From Candidatus Paceibacter normanii SCGC AAA255-P19 (lineage in GTDB: Bacteria > Patescibacteriota > Minisyncoccia > Minisyncoccales > Paceibacteraceae), in the NCBI GenBank assembly GCA_000398025.1, contig ASKX01000003.1, positions 6,143-70,142 on the forward strand: DNA of 64,000 nt, written 5' to 3'. The notes under the pieces were generated by a model, which saw only the letters and a list, made by a program, of their open reading frames with translations, did no database searches and was not told the DNA's origin. The position numbers and the translations under genes were made by a program. Shown here piece by piece: positions 2,014 to 41,559 of this stretch (positions within the stretch are counted from its first letter, which is position 1; the number at the start of each line of letters is the position of its first letter).

Positions 2014-3723
2014 ATGGCTCAAAAAATTTTAAAATTTTCTTTATCAGTTTTTTTGATTTTAGGGATGACTTTGAACAGTCAGATAGTTCTAGCTTGGACC
2101 GGTCCCCCCGGTCCCCCGCCCAGTCCTTGTCCGGCTGACTGGCCCGGCTGTTCTCCTCCTCTTAATGTTAGCTCGGCTGACCAAACCAAAGAAGGAGCTT
2201 TAACCGTTAAATCCTTTATTTACGGTGATGATATTCGGTTAGGATATTGGTCAGAGTCGGGCGAGGTAACGGTAGCTGGTGATATTGAAATTCATGACGA
2301 CTCAGAAAACCAAACTTTTCTCTTAGATGGTGATACTGGTAGATTGACCATTGGCGAATCAATCATCCTTACCCCTCGTTCTTCGCCTCCGATTGCTACC
2401 TGTTCAGCTAGCATTAAGGGTATGGTTTATTTTGATAGCGATGATGACCAACCCTATTATTGTAACGGTTCCGACTGGGTAAACTCCAAAGGTCCCACCG
2501 GTCCCACCGGCCCGACTGGTCCTGCCGGTCCAACCGGAGAGGGTAGCGTGGTCCCAGGTCCCACTGGCCCGACTGGTGCTCCCGGTCCTCCCGGAGGATT
2601 AGGTCCTACTGGGTTAACCGGCGCCACTGGCTCCACTGGCCCGACCGGCCTCACTGGCCCGACCGGTCCTACTGGCCCAACTGGCGCTGACAGTACAGTG
2701 CCAGGCCCAACTGGTCCTACCGGTCCTACTGGCTCAACTGGCCCGACTGGCCCAAAAGGGGCTACTGGGAATACAGGAGCTATTGGGGCTACAGGAGTAA
2801 CCGGACCTACCGGCCCAACTGGTGCTGACAGCGTAGTGCCTGGTCCCACTGGCCCAACTGGATCTACCGGCCCTACTGGGCCAACTGGCGCAGACAGTAC
2901 TGCCCCTGGACCTACCGGGTCAACTGGTCCAACTGGGCCAACTGGCCCTACCGGCGCTGATAGTATAGTACCAGGGCCTACCGGACCGACTGGTCCAACT
3001 GGTCCCACTGGCTCTTCTGGTCCTACTGGCTCTACCGGCCCAACTGGACCAGTTAATCCCGACGATTACGGTCGCTATAACGTGTCCGCTACTCTTTATG
3101 AAGGCACTTCTACTCTTTCTTCCATATATCAAGAAGACATAGGTTCAGACTGCGAAAGCGATAATTATGTTTACGGTGTTTTTAATTCTGGTACTTTGAA
3201 GTGCCGGGCTGATCAAGGTATTACTTCTGAATCAGATCCCCAAGTAGGCACTCTTACTAGTGGAAAATGGTGTACCACCAATGGCAGTACAGTTAATTGC
3301 ACCAGTGATGCCCCCAGCGGTGGAGGATATGATAGCTGTTCAGATATTGAGACAGATTGTAATTATGTTAATGAAAGTGGAGACGATATGAGTGGAGATC
3401 TCAAATTTACCCACTCTGATGCTGATATAAAAGCCCCTTCTTCTACTCTTTGGCTTCAGTATGGCACCGGGCAAAAAACTCACATTGATGGCGGGCTGGA
3501 AGTTGATGAATATCTTGAGATCCCTACTATGTCCTCTCGATCAGGCGTAGATGAGTCTGCCTATGTTCACGGTGATCACGGTACTTATAATTTAGGCGTT
3601 ACTTGTAGCTCTAGCAATCGGGGGAGGATTGGACTTAGCTACAATAATGATAAAAGCACTCACTCTCTCTGTTTTTGCGGAAAATACGAAGGTAGTTACG
3701 AATGGATGTGTTTGGTTTGGTAA
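2014..3723 (+). CDS. Secreted collagen-like (Gly-X-Y) repeat protein with Cys-containing C-terminal globular domain
   Basis: Signal-like N-terminus [20 protein letters not shown]. Long run of [13 protein letters not shown]-type triplets, broken by one GEGSVVPG and four GADSxxPG motifs. Non-repetitive C-terminal domain of about 230 aa. Confidence 0.8.
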
Positions 3724-3764
3724 ATTTAAAGGTTGATTAAATTAAAATAAATTGAAGAAAAAAC

Positions 3765-4316
3765 ATGATTGAAGAAAAAAGTCAAAAATTCCTCAGAATC
3801 CAAAATTTAGTATTAATTATTGGGATAGCTATTTTTATTGGCGGGATTTTAGTAATATTTAACGGTTTAGATGAAAGAATAAAGAGTTTAGAAGAGACGG
3901 TGAATCAGTTTACCTTAGAAGAAGGAAAGATCGTTCCCATAGAAGGAATTTCCGGCACAGGAGAAGAAATTAAGAAAGAAGAAGAGGAAGAGACCCTCAA
4001 GACCTGGAACGAAGTAGCAACATTTAACGGGGTAGAGAGTCAAAAAACAGATTCTTTTTCCGTCCCTACTGAAGAATGGAAAATGAAATGGGAGTTAGAA
4101 AGATATCCTCAGAAAATTGGCCAATTTGCAGTAAAAATTCTCCAAGAAAAGGACAACGCTCTACTTGACTCACTTTCCCGAAGTATTTTGCCAGGAGAAG
4201 GTATTTATTCTGAATCGTTTTTCTATTATCAGGGAGAGGAAAAATTCTATTTTGACGTGACAGCAAATGATTTAAATAACTGGAAGATAAAAGTATACGA
4301 ATTAGAGGAAAAATAA
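3765..4316 (+). CDS. Hypothetical membrane-anchored protein
   Basis: Single N-terminal TM (LVLIIGIAIFIGGILVIF), an acidic linker (KKEEEEE), then a soluble domain. No family recognised. Confidence 0.5.
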   Translation: MIEEKSQKFLRIQNLVLIIGIAIFIGGILVIFNGLDERIKSLEETVNQFTLEEGKIVPIEGISGTGEEIKKEEEEETLKTWNEVATFNGVESQKTDSFSVPTEEWKMKWELERYPQKIGQFAVKILQEKDNALLDSLSRSILPGEGIYSESFFYYQGEEKFYFDVTANDLNNWKIKVYELEEK

Positions 4317-4317
4317 A

Positions 4318-4339
4318 ATACTCTGCTCTGGCAGAGTAT
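4318..4339. terminator. Bidirectional hairpin between convergent genes
   Basis: ATACTCTGC-tctg-GCAGAGTAT is a perfect 9-bp stem. It is flanked by an A-run upstream and a T-rich stretch downstream. Confidence 0.55.
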
Positions 4340-5088
4340 CATTTGAAGGTCAGTTGAATGTCTTGCAGTTCCCATTCTACTGATATCGAATTAATATCGA
4401 GTGCTCTTTCAAAACCATTGGCCGCATCGACTCTCAGAGTGAACTCAACTTTACTTTCTTCCTCTCCCTCGGACTTTTTAAGCTCTCTACTAGGATTAGA
4501 CAGGTATTGTTCTGCCTCAGGCAAAACCCATTTCTTAATCACTTGGCCATCTTTTTTCAATGTAATCAATGGAGTATAGGTAAAGCGAAGAGGTTGCTCA
4601 GTAAGGTTTTCTATAAAGCCAGGGATGGTCAGCACTCCTCGAATTTCTGGTTCACCAGGTCCGCCAGCTGAAACAACTCTGACGCCAAAGAGATACTTAG
4701 CCCGGATTTTCCCTTCAAACTCAGTTGGAACTTTGGCCAGATGGTAGTAATCTTGGTAACATTCGGGACCGGGGATCTCTCCTTTATACATTACTTCCTT
4801 CACCTGGGTTCTTGGGTCAGCTGGCATTTCATTGGGAAACAATATGTGTTCCGCTAAATCCTCTTTGGTGTAAAGAGAAACTGGCCTTTCCTGATCCAGG
4901 CCAAGAAGTTGTTCCACTCTGGTCACTCGCCACTCCAGTTGGGTTACTCTGTCAGTCAGAAGAGTTATTGCTTCCCAAGGATCGCTTATGGCAGCTGCCG
5001 CTCCGGTGGGAAAAGTAAATATAGCCACCAGAAAATAAACAACAAAGACAGTCACAGCGGTTATGCCGATATTCTTTATAGCTTTCAC
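4339..5088 (-). CDS. Hypothetical membrane-anchored protein
   Basis: N-terminal TM (ITAVTVFVVYFLVAIFTF), a coiled segment (LTDRVTQLEWRVTRVEQLL), then a soluble domain. No family recognised. Confidence 0.5.
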   Translation of the reverse strand: MKAIKNIGITAVTVFVVYFLVAIFTFPTGAAAAISDPWEAITLLTDRVTQLEWRVTRVEQLLGLDQERPVSLYTKEDLAEHILFPNEMPADPRTQVKEVMYKGEIPGPECYQDYYHLAKVPTEFEGKIRAKYLFGVRVVSAGGPGEPEIRGVLTIPGFIENLTEQPLRFTYTPLITLKKDGQVIKKWVLPEAEQYLSNPSRELKKSEGEEESKVEFTLRVDAANGFERALDINSISVEWELQDIQLTFK

Positions 5089-5164
5089 GGCTCACCCCCT
5101 ATTTAGTTGTTTGGTGCTTGAATACTGTTCCAATTATCAAATAAAATATAATTTTTGTCAAGTG

Positions 5165-6550
5165 ATGAAAAAATATTTAATTTTAACCCTTTTTGTCTTA
5201 ATATTTTTAACTATTTCTCCTGAAACCGTTCAGGGAGTTTGGATTTCTGGCGGGTGCTATAGCGCAGAAACTAATTGTGAGAGCAATTGCTATACTAACT
5301 GCACCACTCAAGGTTATGCGGCCGGTTATTGTTACGAGGGCTATCCTCAATGCGGCCCAGTTACGGAAAAAAGAACTTGCTGGTGCTGGAAAGAAACGGT
5401 AGCTGATTGCGCTACTGCCTGTTCTGGATACGATAGTTATTATTGTTACCCCTCTTCCAATTGGTGTGGTCAGTTCCCAACTTGTAGTGATTCTACCTTA
5501 TGGTCAGGCTGTGCTTACCAAGGAAGTAAAACTGAATGCCCGGGCGCTTCCCCTTATTGCTATTGTCTTAATTATGCTTACTCAATGACCTGTGCCGCCG
5601 CAGGAGAAACCGTTACCATTAATATTCTAGAAGATGCTGAAGTTCGAGCCGCTTCACCAAACAGTGTTTACAATCGAACCTACCTTTTAGCTTACGGTAA
5701 CGCTACTAACGTCTGGCGGCACTTTATAAAGTATGACCTTTCTTCTATTCCGGCCGGAGCAACTATTACTTCAGCAGTTCATTATGCCCACGTCGGCAGT
5801 GTTTACAGCGCAGTAGATGGAGAGTCAAATACTGATTATCATAAAATAGCCGATGATTCTTGGTCAGAAACAACTCTTACCTGGAGCAATCAACCTGCCT
5901 ACGGAGTTCTTATAGATTCAGCCCTTCCTACGGCATCCGGAGAATGGGCGAGCTGGGATATAACTGGTTATGCCCAAGAAGAATTTGGAGGCGATAAGGT
6001 TCTGAGTGTGTTGGGCAAAGCCAGATCTGAAGCTTGTTCAGGGGCTTGTGGCTATTGGTATCGCTCTTCTGAAAGCTCACCTCCACCCTATCTTGAAGTT
6101 ACCTATACTTCTGGTGCTGCTCCTTCTCCTTGCGGTGGCACAGCTAGCTATGTGACGCCCTTGAGCGCTACGGCAAGTTCAGAATATAGTTCATCATTCT
6201 CTGCCTCAAAAGCCATCGATGGCAATACTGGTTCAGGTTGGTATTCTCAATACAATGCTCCACCCCGCTGGATATACTTTGACTTAGGTAGCGAAAAGTG
6301 TATTAGTGGAATAAAGGGAATATTTTATACCTACGGTTATCCAATAATTATGGATATCCAAATTTCAAATGACACTATCTCTTGGACAACAGTGGTTTCG
6401 AGTTGGAGCGTGACAGATACTTCATACCAATGGAAAGAAGAACTCTTTACCGAAGCCCACGCTCGTTACCTTAGATTAAATGAAACGGCCTTTCAATATT
6501 ACGGAAATTGTTGTGAAATGCAAATTAAAACCCGAAATTACACTCCATAG
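5165..6550 (+). CDS. Secreted multidomain protein: Cys-rich N-domain, DNRLRE/CBM-like domain, F5/8 type C (discoidin)-like domain
   Basis: Start moved to ATG 5165, giving signal peptide MKKYLILTLFVLIFLTISPETVQG. About 140 aa densely packed with Cys. SWSETTLTWSNQP motif. C-terminal AIDGNTGSGWYS discoidin-like signature. Confidence 0.65.
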   Translation: MKKYLILTLFVLIFLTISPETVQGVWISGGCYSAETNCESNCYTNCTTQGYAAGYCYEGYPQCGPVTEKRTCWCWKETVADCATACSGYDSYYCYPSSNWCGQFPTCSDSTLWSGCAYQGSKTECPGASPYCYCLNYAYSMTCAAAGETVTINILEDAEVRAASPNSVYNRTYLLAYGNATNVWRHFIKYDLSSIPAGATITSAVHYAHVGSVYSAVDGESNTDYHKIADDSWSETTLTWSNQPAYGVLIDSALPTASGEWASWDITGYAQEEFGGDKVLSVLGKARSEACSGACGYWYRSSESSPPPYLEVTYTSGAAPSPCGGTASYVTPLSATASSEYSSSFSASKAIDGNTGSGWYSQYNAPPRWIYFDLGSEKCISGIKGIFYTYGYPIIMDIQISNDTISWTTVVSSWSVTDTSYQWKEELFTEAHARYLRLNETAFQYYGNCCEMQIKTRNYTP

Positions 6551-7884: not shown

Positions 7885-9414
7885 ATGAACCAAATTATCC
7901 TTTTAGCACTGGGCGTTTTTGCCTTAGCTATTGGCTCTGTTTTAGGTTATTACGCCCGCCAATCAATTGCCAAAAGAAACTGGAAGACCATCGAAGCCAA
8001 GCTTCAAAAAAGAATAACTCGAGCCAAAGATGACTCAGAGCAAATTCTAATTGAAGCCAAGGAAAAAGCCAACAATTTAGTTGATGAGGCCAAACAAAAA
8101 GAAGACCAAAGAAGAACTGCTCTCTTAAAGACTGAACAACTTTTACTGAAAAGAGAAAATGTTTTAGACCAGAGAGCATCTGGCTTCGAACAAAAACAAA
8201 AAGAATTTCAAGACAAGGTAGAAAAACTGAAAGCAGTTAAAGAAAGCTTAGAAAGCTTAAAGGCCGAAGCCCTTGAGAATTTAGAAAGGGTTTCTGGGCT
8301 TCCTCGCGACAGGGCCAGAGCTGAACTTTTAGAAAATTTGGAGAAAGAATACCAAAAAGAGATTTTGGAAAAACTAAGAAAATTAGAAATGGAAGGGCAA
8401 GAAAAGTTTGAAAGGAAGGCCAAAGAAATTCTTTCTACAGTTGTTCAAAAGTTTGCCTTGTCTCAAGTTCAAGAAATTACTACCACCACTGTTTCTTTAC
8501 CCAACGAAGACATTAAAGGAAGAATTATCGGAAAAGAAGGAAGAAACATTAGGGCCTTAGAAAGCTTAACTGGAGTAGAGTTAGTAGTAGATGATACTCC
8601 GGAGGCAGTAGTTATTTCGGGATTTGACCCTATTCGAAGACAAGTAGCCAAGTCCGCCCTGGAAAAATTAATCCAAGATGGTAGAATTCAACCCGCCCGA
8701 ATTGAAGAAAAAGTTGAAGAAGCTCAAAGAGAAATAGTTGCTCAAATCAAAGAAGCCGGTGAGGCAGCAGTTTATGATGTAGGCCTGGTGACTCTAGACC
8801 CCAAATTAATCCAATTGCTGGGCCGGTTAAGATTTAGGACCAGCTACGGCCAGAACGTTTTGCTTCACTCAATTGAAGTTGCTCACTTAGCTTCAGCTTT
8901 AGCTAATGAAATCGGAGCCAACTCTTTTGTTTGTAAAAAAGCTGGGCTTTTGCACGATATTGGTAAAGCAGTAGACCAGCAGGTAGAGGGTTCTCACACC
9001 GATATTGGAATTCGCATTTTAGAAAAATTTGGAGCTGAGCCCGAAGTGATTACGGCTATGAAGTCCCATCACGAAGAGTATCCTTACGAAACCTTGGAAT
9101 CGGTATTAGTTCAAGCAGCTGACCAAATTTCTGGTGCCCGACCAGGAGCTAGAAAAGATACTTTAGAGAATTATCTAAAGAGGTTGGGAGACTTAGAGGG
9201 ACTTGCCCTTAGCTTTTCAGGAGTAGAAAAGGCCTGGGCCCTGCAAGCTGGCAGAGAGATAAGAGTTTTTGTTAAGCCAGAAGAGATTGATGATCTGCAG
9301 GCCAGAAAACTAGCCAAGGAAGTAGCTAACAGAATTCAAGAAGAGTTGAAATATCCTGGCGAAATAAAAGTTAATGTCATTAGAGAAAGCCGAGTGATTG
9401 AATATGCCAAATAA
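7885..9414 (+). CDS. rny: Ribonuclease Y
   Basis: N-terminal TM and a long coiled coil. KH motif (GRIIGKEGRNIRALE). HD domain (LLHDIGKA, HH at SHHEEY). Confidence 0.9.
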   Translation: MNQIILLALGVFALAIGSVLGYYARQSIAKRNWKTIEAKLQKRITRAKDDSEQILIEAKEKANNLVDEAKQKEDQRRTALLKTEQLLLKRENVLDQRASGFEQKQKEFQDKVEKLKAVKESLESLKAEALENLERVSGLPRDRARAELLENLEKEYQKEILEKLRKLEMEGQEKFERKAKEILSTVVQKFALSQVQEITTTTVSLPNEDIKGRIIGKEGRNIRALESLTGVELVVDDTPEAVVISGFDPIRRQVAKSALEKLIQDGRIQPARIEEKVEEAQREIVAQIKEAGEAAVYDVGLVTLDPKLIQLLGRLRFRTSYGQNVLLHSIEVAHLASALANEIGANSFVCKKAGLLHDIGKAVDQQVEGSHTDIGIRILEKFGAEPEVITAMKSHHEEYPYETLESVLVQAADQISGARPGARKDTLENYLKRLGDLEGLALSFSGVEKAWALQAGREIRVFVKPEEIDDLQARKLAKEVANRIQEELKYPGEIKVNVIRESRVIEYAK

Positions 9415-10163
9415 TGGAAATTAAAACAGTAAAAACTAGGCCGTTTATCCCTCCACGGGACGATCTGCTCTCCTTAATTAAGGAGAGCTTTTCGGATTTG
9501 AAATTGAAAGAAAAATCAATTTTTGTGATTGCCTCCAAAATAGTTTCTATTGGACAAGGAAGATGTATTAGAGCAGATAGAATAAAAGACAAAGACGAGC
9601 TTATCAGAAGAGAAGCTGATTTTTATCTAGAAAGAGAAAAAGTGCCTCACGGCTATGTCATGCTGACTATCAAAGAAAATCTTCTAATTCCTACTGCCGG
9701 GATAGATGAAAGTAATGCTAATGGTTATTTTATTCTCTGGCCAGAAAAACCGAACCTAGCAGCCAAAGAAATCCGCCAGTTTTTAAGAGAAAATTATCAT
9801 TTGAAAAAACTAGGGGTGATTATTGCTGATAGCCACTGCACGCCTTTAAGATGGGGCACCACTGGCATTGCCATTGCCTATTACGGCTTTTACCCTCTTA
9901 AAGATTACCGTGGAGCCAAAGATATTTTTGGTAGGATAATGAAAATCACTCAGTCCAATAAGGTAGATGGCTTGGCAGCCGCTGCCGTCAGCTGCATGGG
10001 AGAAGGAGATGAAATGACCCCCCTGGCCATTATTGAAGATATTGATTTCGTTGATTTTAAGGAATTCGATTCAACCAAATCTGATCCTTTGAAGATAGAC
10101 AGGCACGAAGACATTTATTCTCCTTTGATAGATAGCATTAAATGGAAAAAAGGGAGCGGATAA
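9414..10163 (+). CDS. CofE-like gamma-glutamyl ligase family protein (F420-0/folate-type)
   Basis: Motifs VIASKIVSIGQGR, PTAGIDESNA and ADSHCTPLRWGTTGIAI resemble CofE. The start overlaps the rny stop (TAATG). Confidence 0.6.
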   Translation: MEIKTVKTRPFIPPRDDLLSLIKESFSDLKLKEKSIFVIASKIVSIGQGRCIRADRIKDKDELIRREADFYLEREKVPHGYVMLTIKENLLIPTAGIDESNANGYFILWPEKPNLAAKEIRQFLRENYHLKKLGVIIADSHCTPLRWGTTGIAIAYYGFYPLKDYRGAKDIFGRIMKITQSNKVDGLAAAAVSCMGEGDEMTPLAIIEDIDFVDFKEFDSTKSDPLKIDRHEDIYSPLIDSIKWKKGSG

Positions 10164-27461: not shown

Positions 27462-27493
27462 AAATGAGCGGGCGAAGAGATAAAATGAGCGGG
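27462..27493. repeat. 11-nt direct duplication of the tRNA-Gly(GCC) 3' end
   Basis: AAATGAGCGGG occurs at 27462..27472 and 27483..27493. The 10 nt between are cgaagagata, whose complement is TATCTCTTCG. Confidence 0.7.
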
Positions 27494-27559
27494 AGACGGG
27501 GGTTGAACCCGCGATCTTCTCGTTGGCAACGAGACGTTCTACCACTGAACTACTCCCGC
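27488..27559 (-). tRNA. tRNA-Gly(GCC)
   Basis: Acceptor GCGGGAG/CTCCCGC, anticodon loop TTGCCAA, T-loop TTCAACC. Confidence 0.9.
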
Positions 27560-27570
27560 CAGCAATTTTG

Positions 27571-27642
27571 TGCCGCGGGCCGGGATCGAACCGGCGACCC
27601 CATCTTTTTCAGAGATGTGCTCTACCACTGAGCTACCGCGGC
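27571..27642 (-). tRNA. tRNA-Phe(GAA)
   Basis: Acceptor GCCGCGG/CCGCGGC, anticodon loop CTGAAAA, T-loop TTCGATC. Confidence 0.9.
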
Positions 27643-27647
27643 CTAAC

Positions 27648-27723
27648 TGGTGGGCACTGCAGGATTTGAACCTGCGACCTTCGCGATGTAAGCGCGACGC
27701 GCTAACCACTGCGCCAAGTGCCC
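27648..27723 (-). tRNA. tRNA-Val(UAC), CCA encoded
   Basis: Acceptor GGGCACT/AGTGCCC, anticodon loop CTTACAT, T-loop TTCAAAT, 3' ACCA. Confidence 0.9.
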
Positions 27724-27743
27724 CTATAAATTTCCCTCTTTTG

Positions 27744-27826
27744 TGCCCAGGGAGGGACTCGAACCCTCACGCTCTTACGAGCATGGCACCTCAAGCCATT
27801 GTGTATACCTATTCCACCACCTGGGC
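27744..27826 (-). tRNA. tRNA-Leu(GAG)
   Basis: Acceptor GCCCAGG/CCTGGGC, anticodon loop TTGAGGT, variable arm GCTCGTAAGAGCGT, T-loop TTCGAGT. Confidence 0.9.
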
Positions 27827-28776: not shown

Positions 28777-28777
28777 G

Positions 28778-28851
28778 TGGGCGGTAGAGGACTTGAACCT
28801 CTGACCTCCTCAATGTCAGTGAGACGCTCTAACCAACTGAGCTAACCGCCC
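28778..28851 (-). tRNA. tRNA-Val(GAC)
   Basis: Acceptor GGGCGGT/ACCGCCC, anticodon loop CTGACAT, T-loop TTCAAGT. Confidence 0.9.
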
Positions 28852-28927
28852 CTTGGGCGATGAAGTTTACCTCTTCGGGTTTGCCTTCATCTAGGACCCG
28901 GCGTCCCGCAAGTGCGGGACTTGGGTG
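28852..28927 (-). repeat. R1-related double hairpin filling the tRNA-Ile/tRNA-Val spacer
   Basis: Minus strand reads CACCCAAG-TCCCGC-actt-GCGGGA-CGCCGGGTCCTA-GATGAAGG-(18 nt)-CTTCATC-GCCCAAG. Confidence 0.6.
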
Positions 28928-28999
28928 TGCGCGTGGAAGGGATCGAACCTTCTACTTCCTCTTTATAAGAGAGGCGTTCTACCAATGAACTACACGCGC
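28928..28999 (-). tRNA. tRNA-Ile(UAU)
   Basis: Acceptor GCGCGTG/CACGCGC, anticodon stem CCTCT/AGAGG, loop CTTATAA (anticodon TAT), T-loop TTCGATC. Confidence 0.8.
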
Positions 29000-29002
29000 T
29001 CG

Positions 29003-30892
29003 TTAAACACTTTTTACTTTTACTTTTACTGATCCTTTAGTCTTTGGCAAGGGCTTTTCTTTTGTTGTTTTCTTACCTCCTTTGATCAACTCCTCAAACT
29101 CTTCCCTTTCGATTGTCTCTTTTTCAATTAATCTTTTGGCAATTTTTTCCAGCAAAACCTTTCTTTTCATTAAAATTTTCTTTGCTTTAGTTTCAGCATC
29201 TTTAATAAATTTAGCCACTTCTTTATCAATTTGAGTAGCTATCTTTTCAGAATAGTTTCTCTGTTCAGAAATCTCTTTTCCCAAAAAGATCATTTCTTCT
29301 TTTTCGCCAAAAGAAACTGGACCCAGGGATGACATGCCATATTCTTTAACTAATTTTCTGGCTAATTCTGAAGCTCTTTTAAGGTCGTTGGCTGCTCCCG
29401 TAGTAATTTCGCCAAACTTCAGCTTTTCTGCGCAATAACCGCCCAATAAAGTAGCCATTTCAGCCAAGAATTCTGATTTGGTTCTGATTTTTCTTTCTTC
29501 TTTGGGAAGTTTCAAAGTATAGCCGGCAGCTACCCCTCTAGCCATAATAGAAATTTTCCTTACTGGTTCTGTCTCCATTAAAGAGGTGGAAACCAAAGCA
29601 TGGCCAGCTTCATGGAAAGCCGCAATTTCTTTTTCTTTTTTAGATAAAACATGACTTTTTCTTTCTGGTCCCAATAAAACTTTTTCGATTGATTCCAATA
29701 ATTCTTCTTGGAAAATTTGCTTTTTATTTCTTCTGGCTGCCAAAATAGCAGCTTCATTTACTACGTTAGCTAAGTCCGCCCCGGAAAACCCTGGAGTTCT
29801 CTCGGCCACCTCTCTTAAATTAATATTGAGAGCCAAAGGTTTTCCTCGGCAGTGAATTTTTAAGATCTCTTGCCGGTCATTAATATCTGGTAAATCCAAG
29901 ACTACTCTTCTATCAAACCTGCCCGGCCTTAATAAAGCTGGGTCTAAAACATCGGGCCGATTGGTAGCTGATATCACTATCCGGGTGTCATCTCTCTCAA
30001 AACCATCCATTTCCACTAAAATTTGATTCAAAGTTTGCTCTCTTTCATCGTGTCCCCCGCCAATTCCTGCCCCTCTCAATCGACCGACAGCATCTAGTTC
30101 GTCAATAAAAATTACCGCCCTCCCTGCCTTTTTAGCGGTAGAAAAAAGGTCCCGGACTCTGCTGGCTCCCACCCCGACGAACATCTCGACGAATTCTGAA
30201 CCAGAAATAGAGAAAAAAGGTACCCCGGCCTCAGAGGCGACAGCGCGGGATAAAAGGGTCTTGCCAGTTCCGGGTGGTCCGACTAGCAAGACGCCGCGGG
30301 GAATTCTGGCTCCCATTTGAAGATATTTTTTAGGGTTTCTTAGGAAATCAACTACTTCTTCCAGTTCCTCTTTAGCTTCTTTGAGGCCAGCTACGTCTTT
30401 GAAAGTAATTTTTTCTTTGGGATGGCCTTCGGCCCCAAAAAGGCGAGCTTTAGCCCTGGTAAAGTCAAAGGCCTGAGTGGCTCCGGTTTTGGCTTGGCGG
30501 AAAATCATCCAGAAGAAAAAACCAAAAAATAAAAGCGGCAACAAGATTAACAGAACTGGACCCAGCCAAACCATTGCCCCTCCTTCTTTTTTTGTTTTAA
30601 TTTCTACTTCCTTTAGCTTTTCTTTATCTACTCCGTAATTTATCAAAGACTGGGAGAGAGCCAGCTCCGTTTCTTTGCGAGAGCGGGCTTTAGAATCATC
30701 TTGATAGATAATTTGGAGTTCGTCGCCGGTGACGGTAATCTTTTTAATCTTTCCTTGGTTAACTTCTTCTGCCAACTGAGTAATTGATAATTCCTTCCCT
30801 TTTTCAAAGGGCTGGGAAAATAAGGTAAAAAGCCCGGAGATGACCAGAAAAATCAACAAAATAAAAACAAAATTTTTAACTAAATTCTTCAT
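29003..30892 (-). CDS. ftsH: ATP-dependent zinc metalloprotease FtsH
   Basis: Two TM segments. Walker [11 protein letters not shown], Walker [31 protein letters not shown], zinc site HEAGHAL. Confidence 0.95.
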
Positions 30893-30951: not shown

Positions 30952-30989
30952 TATTCTTAATTTTAACTAAAAATTTTCTAAAAATCAAG

Positions 30990-31040
30990 GCAAAAAAGTG
31001 AAAACCCCGGGGAGAGATGCTTTTGTGAGCAGATCTCTCC
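30990..31040 (-). terminator. Hairpin terminator of the 297-aa gene
   Basis: Minus strand reads GGAGAGAT-(14 nt)-ATCTCTCC followed by CGGGGTTTTCACTTTTTTG. Confidence 0.5.
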
Positions 31041-31074
31041 GCCAGGGTTCTCTGAGTAGTTGAGCGATTGCGGG

Positions 31075-31968
31075 CTACTTGGCAGCGTTGGGCGCGTTGG
31101 AGCGTTGGTGTTCTCGCAGGATCCGTTGGACCTCTGGGCAATTCGATTCCATCTTTGCCCAGGCCTTGAAAAGGTGGGGTACCGGGTCAAGACTGCTCTG
31201 AGTCAGCCGACCCAGAGAAACCATTTGCCCTTCCCTTACCCCGAATTTATTTTCGGGGTCGAGCACCTTTTCGTAGATAGCCGTCTTCTCCTTTGGTTTG
31301 ATAAGGATGGTGATGCCGAATGATGCTTGGACGGTTTGTCCATTTGTCATCTTGTGGCGCAGGCTCAGGAAATACATCCTGATCCTGATTTCCTCCTCAA
31401 TGACGCCAAGGAGTACCTTTGTCGCGATGCCATCGTTCCAGGGGGTTATATCACCCTCCAAAGCATCAACAACCACTTGCCGATGGGCCCACCGCTTTTG
31501 GAACCAATCAGGGGTCTTGGAGAGTAAAAGCCAATCGTCTGGCAAATTCCCTTTCACCTTGTATCCACTATCAAAGTGGATTTTAGGTTCCCCTTTTGGT
31601 TCCTGGGATGGTATGACCTCTACCCGTATGATTTCACCAGGGACGAAATCCCCAATAATGTCTACGAGTCCGCCTTTTTCCAGTACTTCCGGGAAAGGCG
31701 TATGAGCCATAGTGCTGAAAAATTCGGCGGCGCCCTTCCAGTCGTCTGCTTGAGCGAAGATCAGCCTTTGGGTCGATGCCGACCCTGGTTGTGGTCTCTG
31801 GACTATTGGTCTCCGGACTGTTGGTTTCTGGACTGTTGTCCTCGGCGTGGTGACTGCCGGTTCTTTCACGCCAGTCTCTTCGGCTAGTGCCTGCTGAGCC
31901 AGCTTGTGTCCTTGCTCCTTTGCTTCCCTCGCTGTCTTTCTACCCCTTTTGTTATTGTTGTCGCTCAT
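31075..31968 (-). CDS. Hypothetical protein with basic Lys/Arg/Pro/Thr-rich N-terminal tail; no family recognised
   Basis: 297-aa ORF with visibly higher G+C than its neighbours. Strong SD GAAAGGAGGTAAC lies 9 nt before the ATG. It has its own promoter and terminator. Confidence 0.7.
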   Translation of the reverse strand: MSDNNNKRGRKTAREAKEQGHKLAQQALAEETGVKEPAVTTPRTTVQKPTVRRPIVQRPQPGSASTQRLIFAQADDWKGAAEFFSTMAHTPFPEVLEKGGLVDIIGDFVPGEIIRVEVIPSQEPKGEPKIHFDSGYKVKGNLPDDWLLLSKTPDWFQKRWAHRQVVVDALEGDITPWNDGIATKVLLGVIEEEIRIRMYFLSLRHKMTNGQTVQASFGITILIKPKEKTAIYEKVLDPENKFGVREGQMVSLGRLTQSSLDPVPHLFKAWAKMESNCPEVQRILREHQRSNAPNAAK

Positions 31969-31996
31969 TATAAGTTACCTCCTTTCATACTTACCA

Positions 31997-32069
31997 AACC
32001 CTTTGGGTTCGATAGCTAGCTGGCGGGGGACTATAAAATCCCTAACCAATTAGCTATCCCCAAAGGGTT
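31997..32069. promoter_or_regulatory. 73-nt extended hairpin in the leader of the 297-aa gene
   Basis: AACCCTTTGGG pairs with CCCAAAGGGTT (11 bp). GATAGCTAGCTGG pairs with CCAATTAGCTATC (11 of 13). Apical stem is GGGGA-ctataaaa-TCCCT. Confidence 0.5.
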
Positions 32070-32117
32070 ATCAATCATTTTAGAAACTTCGATTTTTAAA
32101 GGGCCTTCAATGGTTTT

Positions 32118-32146
32118 ATTATATACAATTATTTCGATTTTGTCAA
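32118..32146 (-). promoter_or_regulatory. Perfect consensus sigma70 promoter (minus strand)
   Basis: Complement of 32141..32146 is TTGACA. A 17-nt spacer follows. Complement of 32118..32123 is TATAAT. Confidence 0.7.
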
Positions 32147-32168
32147 TAGCTCTTGACAAAACCGAAAT
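32131..32168. promoter_or_regulatory. Palindromic operator-like element spanning both -35 boxes
   Basis: ATTTCGATTTTGTCAA-tagctc-TTGACAAAACCGAAAT, with arms complementary at 15 of 16 positions. The 9-mer TTCGATTTT recurs at 32088..32096. Confidence 0.6.
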
Positions 32169-32181
32169 AAATAATTATAAT
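32153..32181 (+). promoter_or_regulatory. Perfect consensus sigma70 promoter (plus strand)
   Basis: TTGACA at 32153..32158, 17-nt spacer, TATAAT at 32176..32181. Lies about 40 nt upstream of ATG 32220. Confidence 0.7.
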
Positions 32182-32219
32182 TTAGATACGTAATTTGTTA
32201 ATTGAATAAGGAGGTAAAG

Positions 32220-33737
32220 ATGGAAAAGGCTAGATTGCCGTTTTTCTTAGGCGACCCTCGGAAAAGATTTGACTTAATTTCTTCTTATAATCGCAGAGTC
32301 GTTGGTCTCTGTGATGGGCAGTTTTGTTTCTCCTGTAATCCTGATGAGAGGGGAAAATTAGTGGGCTTTGATGGAGGACCGTTAGAGGTAATGCTTCAGC
32401 TTCAGTCAAGGACAAACCCTTTTGGACCTCCAAGAGAATATTACCTTGCCCATTTAGTGTTTGTTCCGGAGCAGGAGAAGGAAGAAATAATTACAGGAGC
32501 AGCGTCCGATGAAGCAATTGAGTTCGACGCTTCCTACAATGCCGTTCTCTATATCTGCGGAGGGACAAGGGTTTTGGTAGATCCAGGATCGATGGCTCTT
32601 ACCAATGGAAGTGTAGAAGGGTTGGCTAAATTAATTGAGGTCTACCGTCCAACTGTGGTAATAATTACTCACGGCCACCAGGACCACTGGCGAAACTTAG
32701 ATCTGTTGGAAAAGTTGGGAATACCAGTTTACCTTACCCCTTTGCCCAATAGATTGATTTCCCACACCGCCAGGATAGAGAAGAATTACGCTTTGCAGAA
32801 GATATTAAGAAAGGGAAGAGCTCAGCTGATCGACCCAGGAGACACAATAGACCTGGGAGAGATGAAAATTTTCACCTTCCCAGTTCCTCATACTATCCCT
32901 GAAGCAATGGGTCTATTGCTAGCAGGGGAAAGGAGAGCCGTGCATCTTGGCGATTTCAGGTTAGGTGAAGGAGTGGAAAAGGCTGAAATAATAACCACTC
33001 TGCGAGCCATTGCCAAGAGAAAGGTTGACTTCGTTGCCGTTAACGTAGTCAACTGCCACCTGGAAGGTTACGCTGAGCCTGAGTCGATGGTCGTTAACTC
33101 TATCACCAATGTTATGGTAGAGGCGAAAGGGAGAGTGGTTGTAACTTGCTTTTCCACTAACGTGGAAAGGATAGGAAGTATAGCGGAAGTGGCCCAGGCC
33201 CAGGGAAGAAATGTGTATTTCTTGGGTACCGGCATGCGACGCGCTCACCTGGAGTTAGCCCGAGAAGGATTGGAGTACGGAGGTGATGAAAACGATATCT
33301 CCCAGCCCAACTCCCTAATTTTTGTCAGCGGCTGTCAAGCCGAGGAAAATTCTATCCTGGAAAGGACATTGGAAGAGAGACCGCCTTACCAACCACAGGA
33401 ATCGGATACGCTCGTTTTTTCGAGCAGAGACGTTCCAGGGAACGAAGTCCCCATCAGAGCACTGATCCAGAAACTTACTCCAAAAGTGAGCACAGTGTTC
33501 ATCTATAAAGGGGAGAGAATCAGGATCGGCTTGGAAGAGAACCAAAAGATTAAGGAAATTGATTGTCATGCCACCGGGCATGGAAAGGAAAAGGATACTG
33601 AGTTAGTGATTCTAGATACTCTTCAACCAAAAGAAGTTCTTCCTATTCCTCAAGAAGGGGAAGGATTTGAGGCCTTCAAGGAGATGGCTGAAGGAGTAGG
33701 GATTAAAATAATCAGTGAACGAGTTGTTGAAATTTAA
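32220..33737 (+). CDS. RNase J-like MBL/beta-CASP nuclease with ~110-aa N-terminal extension
   Basis: SD AAGGAGG lies 5 nt before ATG 32220. MBL motif THGHQDH, DPGD, beta-CASP-like middle, and C-terminal CHATGHG motif. N-terminal GLCDGQFCFSC patch. Confidence 0.75.
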   Translation: MEKARLPFFLGDPRKRFDLISSYNRRVVGLCDGQFCFSCNPDERGKLVGFDGGPLEVMLQLQSRTNPFGPPREYYLAHLVFVPEQEKEEIITGAASDEAIEFDASYNAVLYICGGTRVLVDPGSMALTNGSVEGLAKLIEVYRPTVVIITHGHQDHWRNLDLLEKLGIPVYLTPLPNRLISHTARIEKNYALQKILRKGRAQLIDPGDTIDLGEMKIFTFPVPHTIPEAMGLLLAGERRAVHLGDFRLGEGVEKAEIITTLRAIAKRKVDFVAVNVVNCHLEGYAEPESMVVNSITNVMVEAKGRVVVTCFSTNVERIGSIAEVAQAQGRNVYFLGTGMRRAHLELAREGLEYGGDENDISQPNSLIFVSGCQAEENSILERTLEERPPYQPQESDTLVFSSRDVPGNEVPIRALIQKLTPKVSTVFIYKGERIRIGLEENQKIKEIDCHATGHGKEKDTELVILDTLQPKEVLPIPQEGEGFEAFKEMAEGVGIKIISERVVEI

Positions 33738-33743
33738 TGTTTT

Positions 33744-33775
33744 GGGCGTCCAAGAAATTGGGCGCCCTTCTACGT
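33744..33775 (+). terminator. G+C-rich GNRA-loop hairpin after the RNase J-like gene
   Basis: GGGCGTCCAA-gaaa-TTGGGCGCCC is a 10-bp stem with one G.T pair. It is followed by TTCTACGTTT. Confidence 0.5.
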
Positions 33776-35200
33776 TTAATATATCCGCCACAGATAACGC
33801 CAAGAGGGCGAAGAAACGACATCAGAAAACTTATTTAAAATTTCTTCCAGAGAGGGTTGATTTAAATTGGCTTTGGTATCAATGGGGAGGTTAGAGAATT
33901 TCTTTGGAAAACTTCCCGAGACTAAATTAAATAAATGGGAGAGGAAAGAAGTCGCATAACAACCTTTGGCCAAATTGAAATTTAGAATTACGCCTTGAGG
34001 GAAAACCTTAAAATTCAAAATTTCTACTTTTTCTATGGTTTTAATTCCCCGCTGCCGGTGTTTTAACAAATCCAAATCCTCTAAGTTCTTAAGAGCAAAA
34101 GAAACAGAAAAAATTCCACATTTTTTGAGGAGTTCTTCATAAAACAACCAATTTTTTCTTTCTATCCCCAATATTAAAGGTAACATCTCTGGCGGTTTTT
34201 CATTTTTGGCTAAATAAGAGGAAAGTTTTTTGTTGTAAAGAAAAGAGGCTACGGATTCAACTTGAAGCTCAAGCTGCTTTGAAATTCTTTTTAAAGCCCC
34301 AATGTAATCTTTAGGATTTTCTTTTAAATAAGAAACGATTTTTATCTCATTCTGGAAAGTCAAAGGAAAACACTCTAAAAGTGCTTCAATCTCTTCCCAT
34401 CTTCCCCAGAGTTGTTCCATTTCTTTTCTTAAGTTTTGGAAATAAAATAGCTCTCGCTGTCCCGGTTTAAAAAGATAGGTGAATAACGCTTTTTCATAAT
34501 CTCCCTGCAAAAGATAGAAGCCACAGTAATGGGTTATTAATCTTGGCACGCCAAATCTCTGCAAATAGATAAAATTATAGAAGCCATTTTTTTTGATTTC
34601 TTTCAGTTGTTCCAAGAATTTTTTCTGGTCAAAGTTCGGGCCGATTCTAATTAAAATCGTAAATTGATTCCCCCTCAGGGCGCCACGATAGGTTTCTTTC
34701 TCTCCGGAAAAAACATTTTTCACAAAAAAATTTGGCGAAGAAACCAAATTTAGTTTCTCAACGTCAGTTCCTTTAATAGAAACTCGCTGAGAAGTAATAG
34801 CATGCTTATCTTTAATCCCGGCATACTTGATGCTTTTTGGCTCCAAATTTAGCCTCTTGGTTAGCTCTTCTGCTACCTCAATGGTGGAGAGGCCGCATTT
34901 GACTAAAGTGGCGTAAATAACCGGGTCTTCTCGATTGAAATCTTTTTTGGTGCTCAAAAATTTTTCTGGAAAAACATTTTCTACCTCTCCTCCAAGACTA
35001 ATTTCTTCAACAATAAAGTCCTGAGGCCAAAGCTTTAAATAACCTAAGGGCAGCCCTTTCTTTTTAGGAATCGAAATGCCATATTTCTCTAAGGTTTTTT
35101 GGTCATCGATAAAAGTTTGGCTCTCAAAAAAACGAGGCCATCTTTTAATCGCCTCTCTAAAATTTTCACTTTCAATTTTTTTTGCTTCTAAAATATTCAT
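33776..35200 (-). CDS. truD: tRNA pseudouridine(13) synthase TruD
   Basis: LKLWPQDFIVEE N-terminal motif and catalytic AGIKDKHAITSQ. Confidence 0.8.
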   Translation of the reverse strand: MNILEAKKIESENFREAIKRWPRFFESQTFIDDQKTLEKYGISIPKKKGLPLGYLKLWPQDFIVEEISLGGEVENVFPEKFLSTKKDFNREDPVIYATLVKCGLSTIEVAEELTKRLNLEPKSIKYAGIKDKHAITSQRVSIKGTDVEKLNLVSSPNFFVKNVFSGEKETYRGALRGNQFTILIRIGPNFDQKKFLEQLKEIKKNGFYNFIYLQRFGVPRLITHYCGFYLLQGDYEKALFTYLFKPGQRELFYFQNLRKEMEQLWGRWEEIEALLECFPLTFQNEIKIVSYLKENPKDYIGALKRISKQLELQVESVASFLYNKKLSSYLAKNEKPPEMLPLILGIERKNWLFYEELLKKCGIFSVSFALKNLEDLDLLKHRQRGIKTIEKVEILNFKVFPQGVILNFNLAKGCYATSFLSHLFNLVSGSFPKKFSNLPIDTKANLNQPSLEEILNKFSDVVSSPSWRYLWRIY

Positions 35201-40963: not shown

Positions 40964-40995
40964 AAAGGCCGATAAAATAATCAACAATTCAATTG

Positions 40996-41559
40996 ATGAT
41001 GAAAAAAACCTTTTTAACTTCGTTAATAATCAGCATCTTGGCTATGCTTTTGGCTTCAGCTGCTTTAGCTGGGCCAGTCAAGTGTTGTAAATTGGGAGCT
41101 GACATCAAAGGTTGGACAGGAGGCTACGTATATAGTGGCACGCTAACGAACACAGCTACCGGCGGCAGTGTAGCCTGTACGGCTACTACTCCTTGTAAAT
41201 GTAGTGACCCATCCTCTTTTGCCCAAGGCTGCACTCTTATCAAAGCAAACACCGCTGGGCCCAATGAGGCCGGAGTAACTTGCGAGGATGGGAATGCCCC
41301 TTATTACAAGACTAATTCCTGGGGAATGGTTTGCCTGCTTAATGGAATTGAAGTGGCGACTAACTGGACTTTTATTTTCCTGATGGTTTTGGTGGCTCTT
41401 TTCATTCTTTGGGGTGCCTTTAACATCGTCACCGCTGGCGGTTCTCCAGAAAAAGTAGGCACCGGTAGAAGTTACATTATCTACGCCCTGGTTGGTTTAG
41501 CTGTTGCCCTTTTGGCCAAAGCCCTTCCTTCGATTGTCCAAGCTTTACTGGGCGTCTAG
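40996..41559 (+). CDS. TrbC/VirB2-like small pilin-type membrane protein, paralogue with larger Cys-rich ectodomain
   Basis: Signal peptide and a Cys-containing domain of about 100 aa. Then IVTAGGSPEKVGTGRS between two TM segments. Same C-terminal architecture as 40511..40963. Confidence 0.55.
   Translation: MMKKTFLTSLIISILAMLLASAALAGPVKCCKLGADIKGWTGGYVYSGTLTNTATGGSVACTATTPCKCSDPSSFAQGCTLIKANTAGPNEAGVTCEDGNAPYYKTNSWGMVCLLNGIEVATNWTFIFLMVLVALFILWGAFNIVTAGGSPEKVGTGRSYIIYALVGLAVALLAKALPSIVQALLGV

Follow-up and report, generated by a model that had tools for sequence, protein, structure and literature searches.

A divergent gene pair between ftsH and truD

The 64-kb window analyzed here, the whole of the DNA under study, is a contiguous stretch of the genome of Candidatus Paceibacter normanii and carries two divergently oriented genes, unkA and rnjL, in the interval between ftsH and truD (Table 1). 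The former encodes an orphan protein and the latter an RNase J-like nuclease, and we refer to the pair, with its expression signals, as the cassette. It looks like an accessory nuclease system not described before, rather than a core gene pair; it is conserved in place among relatives, is exchanged horizontally between lineages, and is under purifying selection. An earlier note on this DNA had called a divergent two-gene block at this position, and the open reading frames (ORFs) are as it described them, with both flanking genes confirmed by Pfam. The ORF lister began rnjL at TTG 32202, and the start was set instead at the conserved ATG 32220 because homologues begin MEK.... For comparison, contigs of related family members (loci L001 to L118) were retrieved via rnjL or unkA, and statements about every relative refer to cassette-bearing loci only.

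Table 1. Features of the cassette, its flanks, and a related locus (window coordinates, except for the last row, which gives those of locus L014)
Feature	Position	Strand	Description
ftsH	29003-30892	minus	Cassette flank, 629 aa; Pfam-confirmed, no intein
unkA 3' terminator-like element	30985-31052	minus	G+C-rich hairpin 31000-31052, then U-run 30985-30999
unkA	31075-31968	minus	297 aa, orphan protein
UnkA globular domain	31078-31749	minus	aa 74-297, alpha/beta, no detectable fold relative
UnkA N-terminal helix and linker	31750-31968	minus	aa 1-73; Lys/Arg-rich helix, Pro/Thr/Arg-rich disordered linker
unkA 5' leader	31969-32112	minus	About 140 nt; predicted transcription start about 32111; Shine-Dalgarno site AAGGAGGT at 31977-31984; hairpin 32000-32068
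Bidirectional promoter	32118-32181	both	ATTATA-N17-TGTCAA-N6-TTGACA-N17-TATAAT, mirror-symmetric
rnjL 5' leader	32188-32219	plus	Short; Shine-Dalgarno site AAGGAGGT at 32208-32215; transcription start predicted from -10 box
rnjL	32220-33737	plus	505 aa, RNase J-like nuclease
rnjL N-terminal domain	32220-32534	plus	aa 1-105, beta-rich, putative Zn site
rnjL catalytic core	32535-33737	plus	aa 106-505 plus stop; metallo-beta-lactamase and beta-CASP, RNase J type
rnjL 3' hairpin	33744-33767	plus	G+C-rich, between convergent rnjL and truD; terminator-like, weak U-tract
truD	33776-35200	minus	Cassette flank; Pfam-confirmed
L014 side features	3447-5162 and 8348-8779	minus	Left-flank region

RnjL and its predicted nuclease activity

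The RNase J architecture proposed for RnjL in the earlier note is borne out by an HGHQDH motif, a PF22505 beta-CASP domain, and an H-x-T-G-H motif. Pfam recognized Lactamase_B, Lactamase_B_2, and PF22505, the last at 59.7 bits against a cut-off of 27, while two NCBIfam models scored below their curated cut-offs (TIGR00649, 121.5 versus 400 bits; NF047419, 128.2 versus 820). HGHQDH occupies amino acids 151 to 156, and D121, H224, and D245 vary little or not at all among 16 family members. Motif C, which in RNase J provides the catalytic His and the 5'-phosphate pocket, reads HATGHG, of the H-x-S/T-G-H type, with H450, G453, and H454 invariant, and aligns with HASGH of the RNase J structure 3bk1. 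When the profile of this 16-member family was compared with structures, E values ran from 1e-54 to 1e-38 for bacterial RNase J and stood at 1e-32 for the archaeal enzyme; the elements HGHxDH, HSIPE, HxGDFK, TGxQ[AG]E, IPGNE, and HxSGH were all aligned to RNase J, the beta-CASP domain being matched to 3bk1 as far as the IPGNE element. An AlphaFold2 (AF2) model of RnjL (predicted local distance difference test [pLDDT] score, 81) matched RNase J1 (3zq4) with a Foldseek E value of 4e-25 and a template modeling (TM) score of 0.64, and ranks 1 to 42 of the search were all RNase J. The catalytic residues do not vary within the family, and RnjL should therefore be an active enzyme.

RnjL departs from canonical RNase J at both ends. 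The C-terminal dimerization domain of RNase J, PF17770, is present in canonical homologues, and no match to it was obtained in RnjL or in family members P0003 to P0018; RnjL ends about 50 amino acids past motif C. At the other end lies the N-terminal extension with a cysteine patch to which the earlier note had pointed. It proved to be a 105-amino-acid domain in which Cys31, Cys36, Cys39, and His78 are invariant and which the RNase J profiles do not cover; searched alone against the PDB and Pfam, it gave nothing except a sub-threshold CXXC hint. Judged by these sequence comparisons, RnjL is a new and rare RNase J subfamily that has gained a Cys3-His N-terminal domain and lost the dimerization domain.

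The earlier note had also raised the case that RnjL might be the only RNase J of its genome. One relative, L014, holds a canonical RNase J as well, a 571-amino-acid protein (PF22505 at 153.6 bits plus RNase_J_C) encoded 5 kb from the cassette. RnjL is therefore an extra paralogue in L014, and we infer the same for the window genome. In a survey covering over 30,000 genomes, rnj, rnc, and pnp were reported among the genes kept in at least 90% of genomes of the candidate phyla radiation (CPR) (PMC12641178), and this reported wide retention of rnj makes RnjL-type copies likely to be additional.

UnkA, an orphan partner

The earlier note could assign the 297-amino-acid UnkA to no family, and neither could we: no match was obtained in Pfam, NCBIfam, PADLOC, or PHROGs, so that no housekeeping family claims it; the family profile returned nothing below an E value of 0.9 against PDB sequences; and a Foldseek search of the model against the PDB and BFVD gave no match at E ≤ 1e-3. 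The model is nevertheless confident in the globular half (pLDDT of 85 to 97 for residues 150 to 290). An exhaustive hidden Markov model (HMM) search of 1.84e9 representative proteins delimited the family sharply at 34 clusters, with nothing else beyond the cut-off. Conserved motifs within it are PLGFIPGP, EPSPWN, FRYRPGDPE, and QKLLRTWALMEGNY. No obvious conserved catalytic constellation is apparent, which suggests that UnkA is perhaps a binding or regulatory protein; from its composition, the basic tail would be of a nucleic-acid-binding type. Three 15-nt tandem repeats at 31792-31836 on the minus strand encode the P-(T/I)-V-(Q/R)-R-P linker, whose length is variable, as the closest relative, L001, carries more repeat copies.

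Expression signals and the unkA leader

Each gene has its own expression signals, as the earlier note had maintained for promoters, ribosome-binding sites, and terminators. Two sigma-70 promoters, each matching the consensus at 12 of 12 positions, stand back to back (plus strand, 32153-32181; minus strand, 32146-32118) and together form a 32+32-nt inverted repeat. This architecture is kept in nearly all related loci, even where the cassette proteins are only 22 to 40% identical, and is degenerate in L014. In L001 (about positions 1310 to 1430), L011, and L099, the two -35 boxes are set apart by an insert of 60 to 120 bp that contains a G+C-rich hairpin; the spacer in the window is 6 bp.

The full Shine-Dalgarno (SD) sequence AAGGAGG occurs upstream of unkA and rnjL only (2 of 63 window genes), and these are also the sole genes with an SD core of at least 6 nt. 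Host genes, for example those starting at 2014, 3765, 18937, and 37504, are essentially without SD sites, and more than half of the window genes (36 of 63) are without any 4-mer SD core. Across 23 related loci, GGAGG was found upstream of 39 of 43 cassette genes versus 2 of 198 non-cassette genes. To judge from these sites, the host lineage is essentially without SD use, and the cassette appears to be always SD-equipped.

At the 3' ends, the folding energy is -35.8 kcal/mol for the hairpin of unkA (z = -5.03; none of 200 shuffles folded as well) and -22 kcal/mol for that of rnjL (z = -3.94), which has a weak U-tract. The hairpin in the unkA leader folds at -50.5 kcal/mol (z = -4.98). Of its 19 pairs, 12 show compensatory changes, and 95% of cells are paired. 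None of 500 shuffles reached these values, and slid controls gave 20 to 51%. The covariance model scored higher on the unkA-sense strand and G-U pairs are present, which speaks for an element at the RNA level and against a DNA palindrome. Rfam 15 assigned the leader to no family, its gathering-score matches in the window being tRNAs only and the sub-threshold matches of the leader being chance matches to miRNA hairpins. The element is present in a single copy per locus, and no further genomic copies that might serve as targets were found in the window or in 28 loci. Alleles L007, L096, L100, and L102 are missing the hairpin and retain a second small hairpin beside the SD site.

Composition of the cassette

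The distinct composition reported in the earlier note was recovered by binning and by codon position. The 1-kb bin 31001-32000 has a G+C content of 0.518 and most other bins lie at roughly 0.35 to 0.43, with the caveat that local G+C also reaches 0.53 in the conserved ftsH core. G+C content at third codon positions (GC3) averages 0.359 ± 0.049 over 62 window genes defined by simple gene calls. Against this baseline, unkA (GC 0.521, GC3 0.577) stands about 4.4 standard deviations high and rnjL (GC 0.460, GC3 0.459) about 2; GC1 and GC2 are likewise elevated in both. The true anomaly is thus one of synonymous sites, beyond amino acid content alone.

Several sources of the G+C excess were considered and rejected. 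The high GC3 rules out an effect of amino acid composition, and the equal rise of G-ending codons rules out plain translational selection for NNY codons ending in C. A simple unameliorated foreign origin was set aside because synteny is conserved and synonymous divergence (dS) saturated. Tract-wide GC-biased gene conversion is doubtful, as neither the intergenic promoter region (GC 0.24 to 0.39) nor the adjoining end of truD is enriched. The shift in G+C and codon usage endures even though every observed host is AT-rich and the cassette alleles are saturated at synonymous sites. Selection on the cassette mRNAs themselves seems the most economical idea, a speculative one: the messages might be shielded against AU-directed cleavage or, being structured and G+C-rich, might depend on SD-led initiation.

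Two other genes in the window bear on the composition profile. The 569-amino-acid product of a plus-strand gene at 2014-3723 contains collagen triple-helix repeats (PF01391); the gene has a GC2 of 0.62, which accounts for a G+C peak of 0.54 at 2 to 3 kb, and a host-like GC3. After the cassette pair, and disregarding a spurious ORF over tRNA genes, the next-highest GC3 of a genuine gene (0.455) belongs to a 188-amino-acid plus-strand gene at 40993-41559 with a sub-cut-off match to a type IV secretion system (T4SS) pilin family (PF18895, 23.8 versus 26.6 bits).

The cassette in related genomes

The gene order L19-rluA-ftsH-unkA<>rnjL-truD-S1-MBL-x-gyrA (MBL, metallo-beta-lactamase) recurs in about 20 distinct loci, and the flanking housekeeping proteins are 53 to 93% identical across the clade. 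The family is nevertheless very rare: two of these loci belong to genomes named "Parcubacteria group bacterium", which alone among 185,579 GTDB species representatives have it. The earlier note had allowed for the pair having host-like composition at this position in all relatives; it is non-host in all but one. In the related loci, GC3 is 0.46 to 0.78 for unkA and 0.37 to 0.55 for rnjL versus 0.25 to 0.39 for the neighbors. The exception is L013 (200-2785; Candidatus Nealsonbacteria metagenome-assembled genome GCA_043820465.1), where the cassette is nearly host-like (GC3 of 0.38 for both genes) and the promoter, SD sites, and leader hairpin are all retained. L014 has a G+C-richer background (neighbor GC3 of 0.48), on which unkA (0.77) is a strong outlier and rnjL (0.55) a slight one.

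Distant relatives of rnjL (31 to 37% identity) have retained both the Cys3-His domain and a promoter of the TTGACAAAA type, and their loci are likewise G+C-richer islands within lower-G+C DNA. In L111 to L115, rnjL stands alone between gatB and a MiaB-like gene; in L109, L116, and L118, it is convergent with a gene for a 400-amino-acid orphan partner. Homology of this partner to unkA was considered and rejected (hhalign probability, 2%). It gave no Pfam match and no credible PADLOC match: in PADLOC-DB v2, the partners in L109 and L118 had no match and that in L116 a single marginal one to ZorA (17 bits). Since rnjL occurs solo or with different partners elsewhere, the nuclease is a portable module whose partners can be exchanged.

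Some further features of these loci and of the window deserve mention. In L014, a more distant genome, the left flank is not ftsH; a holin-like ORF (Phage_holin_4_2) lies there, followed by SBP_bac_5, a nucleotidyl transferase, and the canonical RNase J. Inteins (Pfam Intein_splicing) split ftsH in L002 (1900-5184) and L013 (2954-6226) and gyrA in L010 (314-4357); the window gyrA encodes 824 amino acids and is without an intein. Beside the distant rnjL of L118 is a gene for a 23S rRNA intervening-sequence/bAvd-like protein (4863-5228, plus strand), and in L111 a small Cys-containing ORF (MQIWKCRFCGKEF...; 9489-9672, plus strand) with its own terminator lies directly upstream of rnjL. The window holds 20 tRNA genes in 64 kb, with dense minus-strand clusters just upstream of the locus at 27487-27826 and 28777-28999, the latter including a tRNA-Ile with anticodon TAT (28927-28999).

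Exchange of cassette alleles between lineages

Flanks and cassette tell different histories. In the flanks, the window groups with L100 and L102 (87 to 88% identity for FtsH, 87 to 88% for L19, 81 to 83% for RluA, and 70 to 72% for TruD; with L100, 77% for S1 and 85% for GyrA), L002 groups with L110 (FtsH, 88%; L19, 92%), and every flanking protein supports the same host grouping. In the cassette, identity between the window and L002 is 56% for rnjL and 41% for unkA, versus 40 to 41% and 25 to 27% between the window and L100/L102 and 38% and 24% between L002 and L110. Bootstrapped neighbor-joining (NJ) trees gave conflicting splits for flanks and cassette, each with 100% support. Long-branch attraction was considered for the window-L002 grouping and rejected, as raw rnjL identity is itself higher (56% versus 38 to 43%).

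The reverse case is offered by L006 and L010, in which rnjL is 89% identical and TruD, S1, and MBL are 73 to 78% identical; dS is 0.38 for rnjL versus 1.39 for truD and 2.13 for S1. DNA identity between these two loci is about 0.90 over rnjL, about 0.81 over the adjoining half of truD, and 0.55 to 0.72 further out, which is the profile of a recombination tract. Between the window and L100, by comparison, identity is 0.75 to 0.85 in the flanks and 0.30 to 0.55 in the cassette, and the change is abrupt where ftsH and truD end. From the discordant trees, the dS values, and the DNA identity tracts, we conclude that the cassette has been exchanged among lineages via homologous recombination, and since unkA and rnjL show the same groupings, both genes move together.

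Throughout this history the proteins have been constrained. The ratio dN/dS (dN, nonsynonymous divergence) is 0.15 to 0.17 in the cassette versus 0.04 to 0.11 in the flanks, indicating purifying selection that is looser than on the neighbors. Between L100 and L102, dN is 0.2 to 0.4 for the cassette versus 0.04 to 0.05 for the flanks, and even the closest cassette relative, L001, is only 86% and 81% identical in the two proteins, at a dS of 0.51. The cassette alleles are thus deeply divergent, and the locus behaves as a miniature "replacement island". The earlier note had described the cassette as apparently acquired. Its history does differ from that of the flanks, but it was not inserted in this genome alone; since the same pair holds the slot clade-wide, what was taken for acquisition is allelic replacement at a fixed locus.

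A conflict-type reading and its alternatives

We read the cassette as a lineage-restricted, accessory nuclease module of the conflict type in a Parcubacteria genome resembling Candidatus Nealsonbacteria, and hold this with about as much belief as doubt. We infer that RnjL and UnkA are physical partners that act on an RNA substrate in a conflict role and are autoregulated. RnjL would be the nuclease effector and UnkA its specificity, regulatory, or inhibitory partner, which may replace the lost RNase J oligomerization domain; the two would form a two-component nuclease directed at RNA, or possibly at nucleic acids more broadly. Both genes would be driven by the mirrored consensus promoter and the consensus SD sites, and the unkA leader hairpin would be a site of feedback control. 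The module might defend against mobile elements or competitors or act as a toxin/antidote-like pair, and its divergent alleles are swapped via homologous recombination in the housekeeping flanks. Searches of the literature found no description of a fixed slot, allelic swapping, atypical composition, and an SD signature in combination.

A bolder version, which we regard as unlikely, would see here a CPR-specific conflict or defense system in which an RNase J-derived nuclease works with interchangeable orphan partners and self mRNA is immune by virtue of its composition. High G+C and SD sites would then be kept by selection since the system itself, or AU-directed decay or SD-independent initiation in the host, discriminates RNAs by composition, and negative-frequency-dependent selection would uphold the deeply divergent, recombination-swapped alleles.

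Several observations count against a conflict role. Classical toxin-antitoxin pairs form operons, whereas the two genes here diverge. Every related locus that the rnjL/unkA search recovered has the pair, and its neighbors are genes for RNA and ribosome functions (truD, rluA, S1, and L19), which would fit a housekeeping function too. The 64-kb window holds no canonical RNase J. No copy of the cassette was found in IMG/VR viral contigs, INPHARED phages, or PLSDB plasmids; PADLOC-DB v2 gave no match for rnjL and unkA of the window, unkA of L014, or rnjL of L110; and PHROGs gave none for the cassette proteins.

Some of these points feed directly into the alternative that survives best, a lineage-specific housekeeping pair for RNA processing, which we judge to be somewhat unlikely. 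RnjL would then be an RNase J2-like paralogue and UnkA an RNA- or ribosome-binding adaptor, with the pair acting in rRNA, tRNA, or mRNA maturation and the allelic replacement being incidental. That every recovered relative has the two genes in the same slot, and that they sit beside truD, rluA, an rpsA-like S1 gene, and rplS, with rbfA and infB nearby, would be natural for such a pair, as would purifying selection. Firmicutes provide a model in their two cooperating RNase J paralogues (PDB 9a5v, RNJ2-RNJ1 model), and UnkA has a basic tail resembling those that bind RNA. What such genes would not be expected to show is an identity of 40% beside one of 88% in immediate neighbors, conflicting trees at 100% bootstrap support, dS values 4- to 5-fold below those of the flanks, or the much faster protein evolution seen between L100 and L102. 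Codon usage, SD use, and promoters that differ from every other host gene also speak against this alternative, as do the extreme rarity of the family among GTDB species representatives and the swapping or loss of the partner in relatives.

We consider it distinctly improbable that the cassette is a selfish, free-standing element of the homing type, in which RnjL would cut the ftsH-truD junction of genomes with another allele or no cassette and repair would copy the cassette in along with adjacent flank sequence. This explanation would account for the fixed insertion site, the phylogenetic discordance with the flanks, and the gradual decay of identity into truD, which resembles a co-conversion tract. 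Some beta-CASP enzymes, those of the Artemis/SNM1 type, are DNA nucleases, the Cys3-His domain of RnjL could bind DNA, and the inteins in ftsH and gyrA of relatives attest that homing elements circulate in these genomes. The closest relatives of RnjL by sequence and fold are RNases, however, and it has kept the RNase J-type H-x-S-G-H motif; Pfam detected MBL and beta-CASP domains only and no known homing-nuclease domain (LAGLIDADG, GIY-YIG, HNH, or PD-(D/E)XK). Purifying selection has acted steadily on both genes across deep divergence, and no degenerate copies turned up, which is not how the homing cycle usually runs; the loci retrieved through rnjL/unkA included no empty site; and the second gene and the structured leader would be left without a role. 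We give almost no credence to a recent, unameliorated insertion from a G+C-richer donor: GC, GC3, SD, and promoter signals are indeed atypical for the host, but about 20 distinct relatives have this pair in this slot, the closest cassette relative is already at a dS of 0.51, the GC excess is still there in proteins down to 22 to 40% identity with saturated synonymous sites, and no integrase or transposase ORF, tRNA target, or notable flanking direct or inverted repeats were found at the cassette.

The cassette matters for several reasons. The CPR/Patescibacteria have tiny genomes with few recognized accessory or defense functions, and a horizontally exchanged nuclease cassette in a fixed slot would open a way to study genetic conflict and recombination among these uncultured episymbionts. 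The cassette adds a new RNase J subfamily, two orphan partner families, one of which has a confidently modeled globular half without a fold match, and a new structured mRNA leader. G+C-rich codons and consensus SD sites in AT-rich, otherwise SD-free genomes also constitute a clean natural experiment that bears on what drives synonymous composition and the mode of translation initiation.

Comparison with known systems

The nearest described enzymes are the bacterial RNases J1/J2 (Bacillus subtilis, 3zq4; Thermus thermophilus, 3bk1), RNase J being a 5'-3' exo- and endoribonuclease. RnjL shares with them the metallo-beta-lactamase and beta-CASP core and motifs of the HxHxDH, HSIPE-, HxGDF-, IPGNE-, and HxSGH-type, and resembles them also in being a second paralogue beside a canonical enzyme. 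It differs in being only 23 to 29% identical and in having no linker or C-terminal PF17770, and it brings with it the additional 105-amino-acid Cys3-His domain, an orphan partner gene, horizontal exchange, and an atypical composition. Archaeal RNase J (Methanolobus psychrophilus mpy-RNase J, 5haa/5ws2) is about 450 to 470 amino acids long and, like RnjL, is without the bacterial C-terminal domain. Its match to RnjL (profile E value, 1e-32; fold E value, about 1e-22) ranks below those of the bacterial enzymes and, unlike the rnjL of the cassette, it is a core gene without a Cys3-His N-terminal domain.

As a gene pair, the cassette departs from type II toxin-antitoxin systems, which consist of two small, co-directional, and co-transcribed genes and whose products join in a complex that controls the promoter; the cassette genes are divergent, encode 297 and 505 amino acids, and have separate promoters. 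The ribonuclease genes rne, rnc, and pnp carry autoregulatory hairpins in their 5' untranslated regions (UTRs). The unkA leader is similar in placing a long conserved 5' UTR hairpin beside the ribosome-binding site in a ribonuclease module, but here the hairpin is on the mRNA of the partner rather than that of the nuclease and is missing in some alleles.

A precedent for a partner-recruited conflict nuclease is Cas14, the beta-CASP ribonuclease that serves as effector of type VII CRISPR-Cas (9j9e/8yhd; PMC13069675). It is far more distant from RnjL than RNase J is (Foldseek E value, 1.3e-14; sequence E value, 7e-5) and no cas genes were recognized among the cassette neighbors, a check that did not extend to CRISPR arrays; the partner here is a single orphan. 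In its population behavior, the cassette most resembles the replacement flexible genomic islands (Lopez-Perez et al. 2014, PMC4033161), in which divergent versions occupy the same locus and are exchanged via homologous recombination in the flanks; the signatures of divergence at the boundaries and the conserved flanks by which such islands are recognized are both found here. Such islands usually extend over many kilobases and encode exposed surface structures, whereas the cassette spans 2.8 kb, encodes cytoplasmic-looking proteins, and comprises the same two families throughout.

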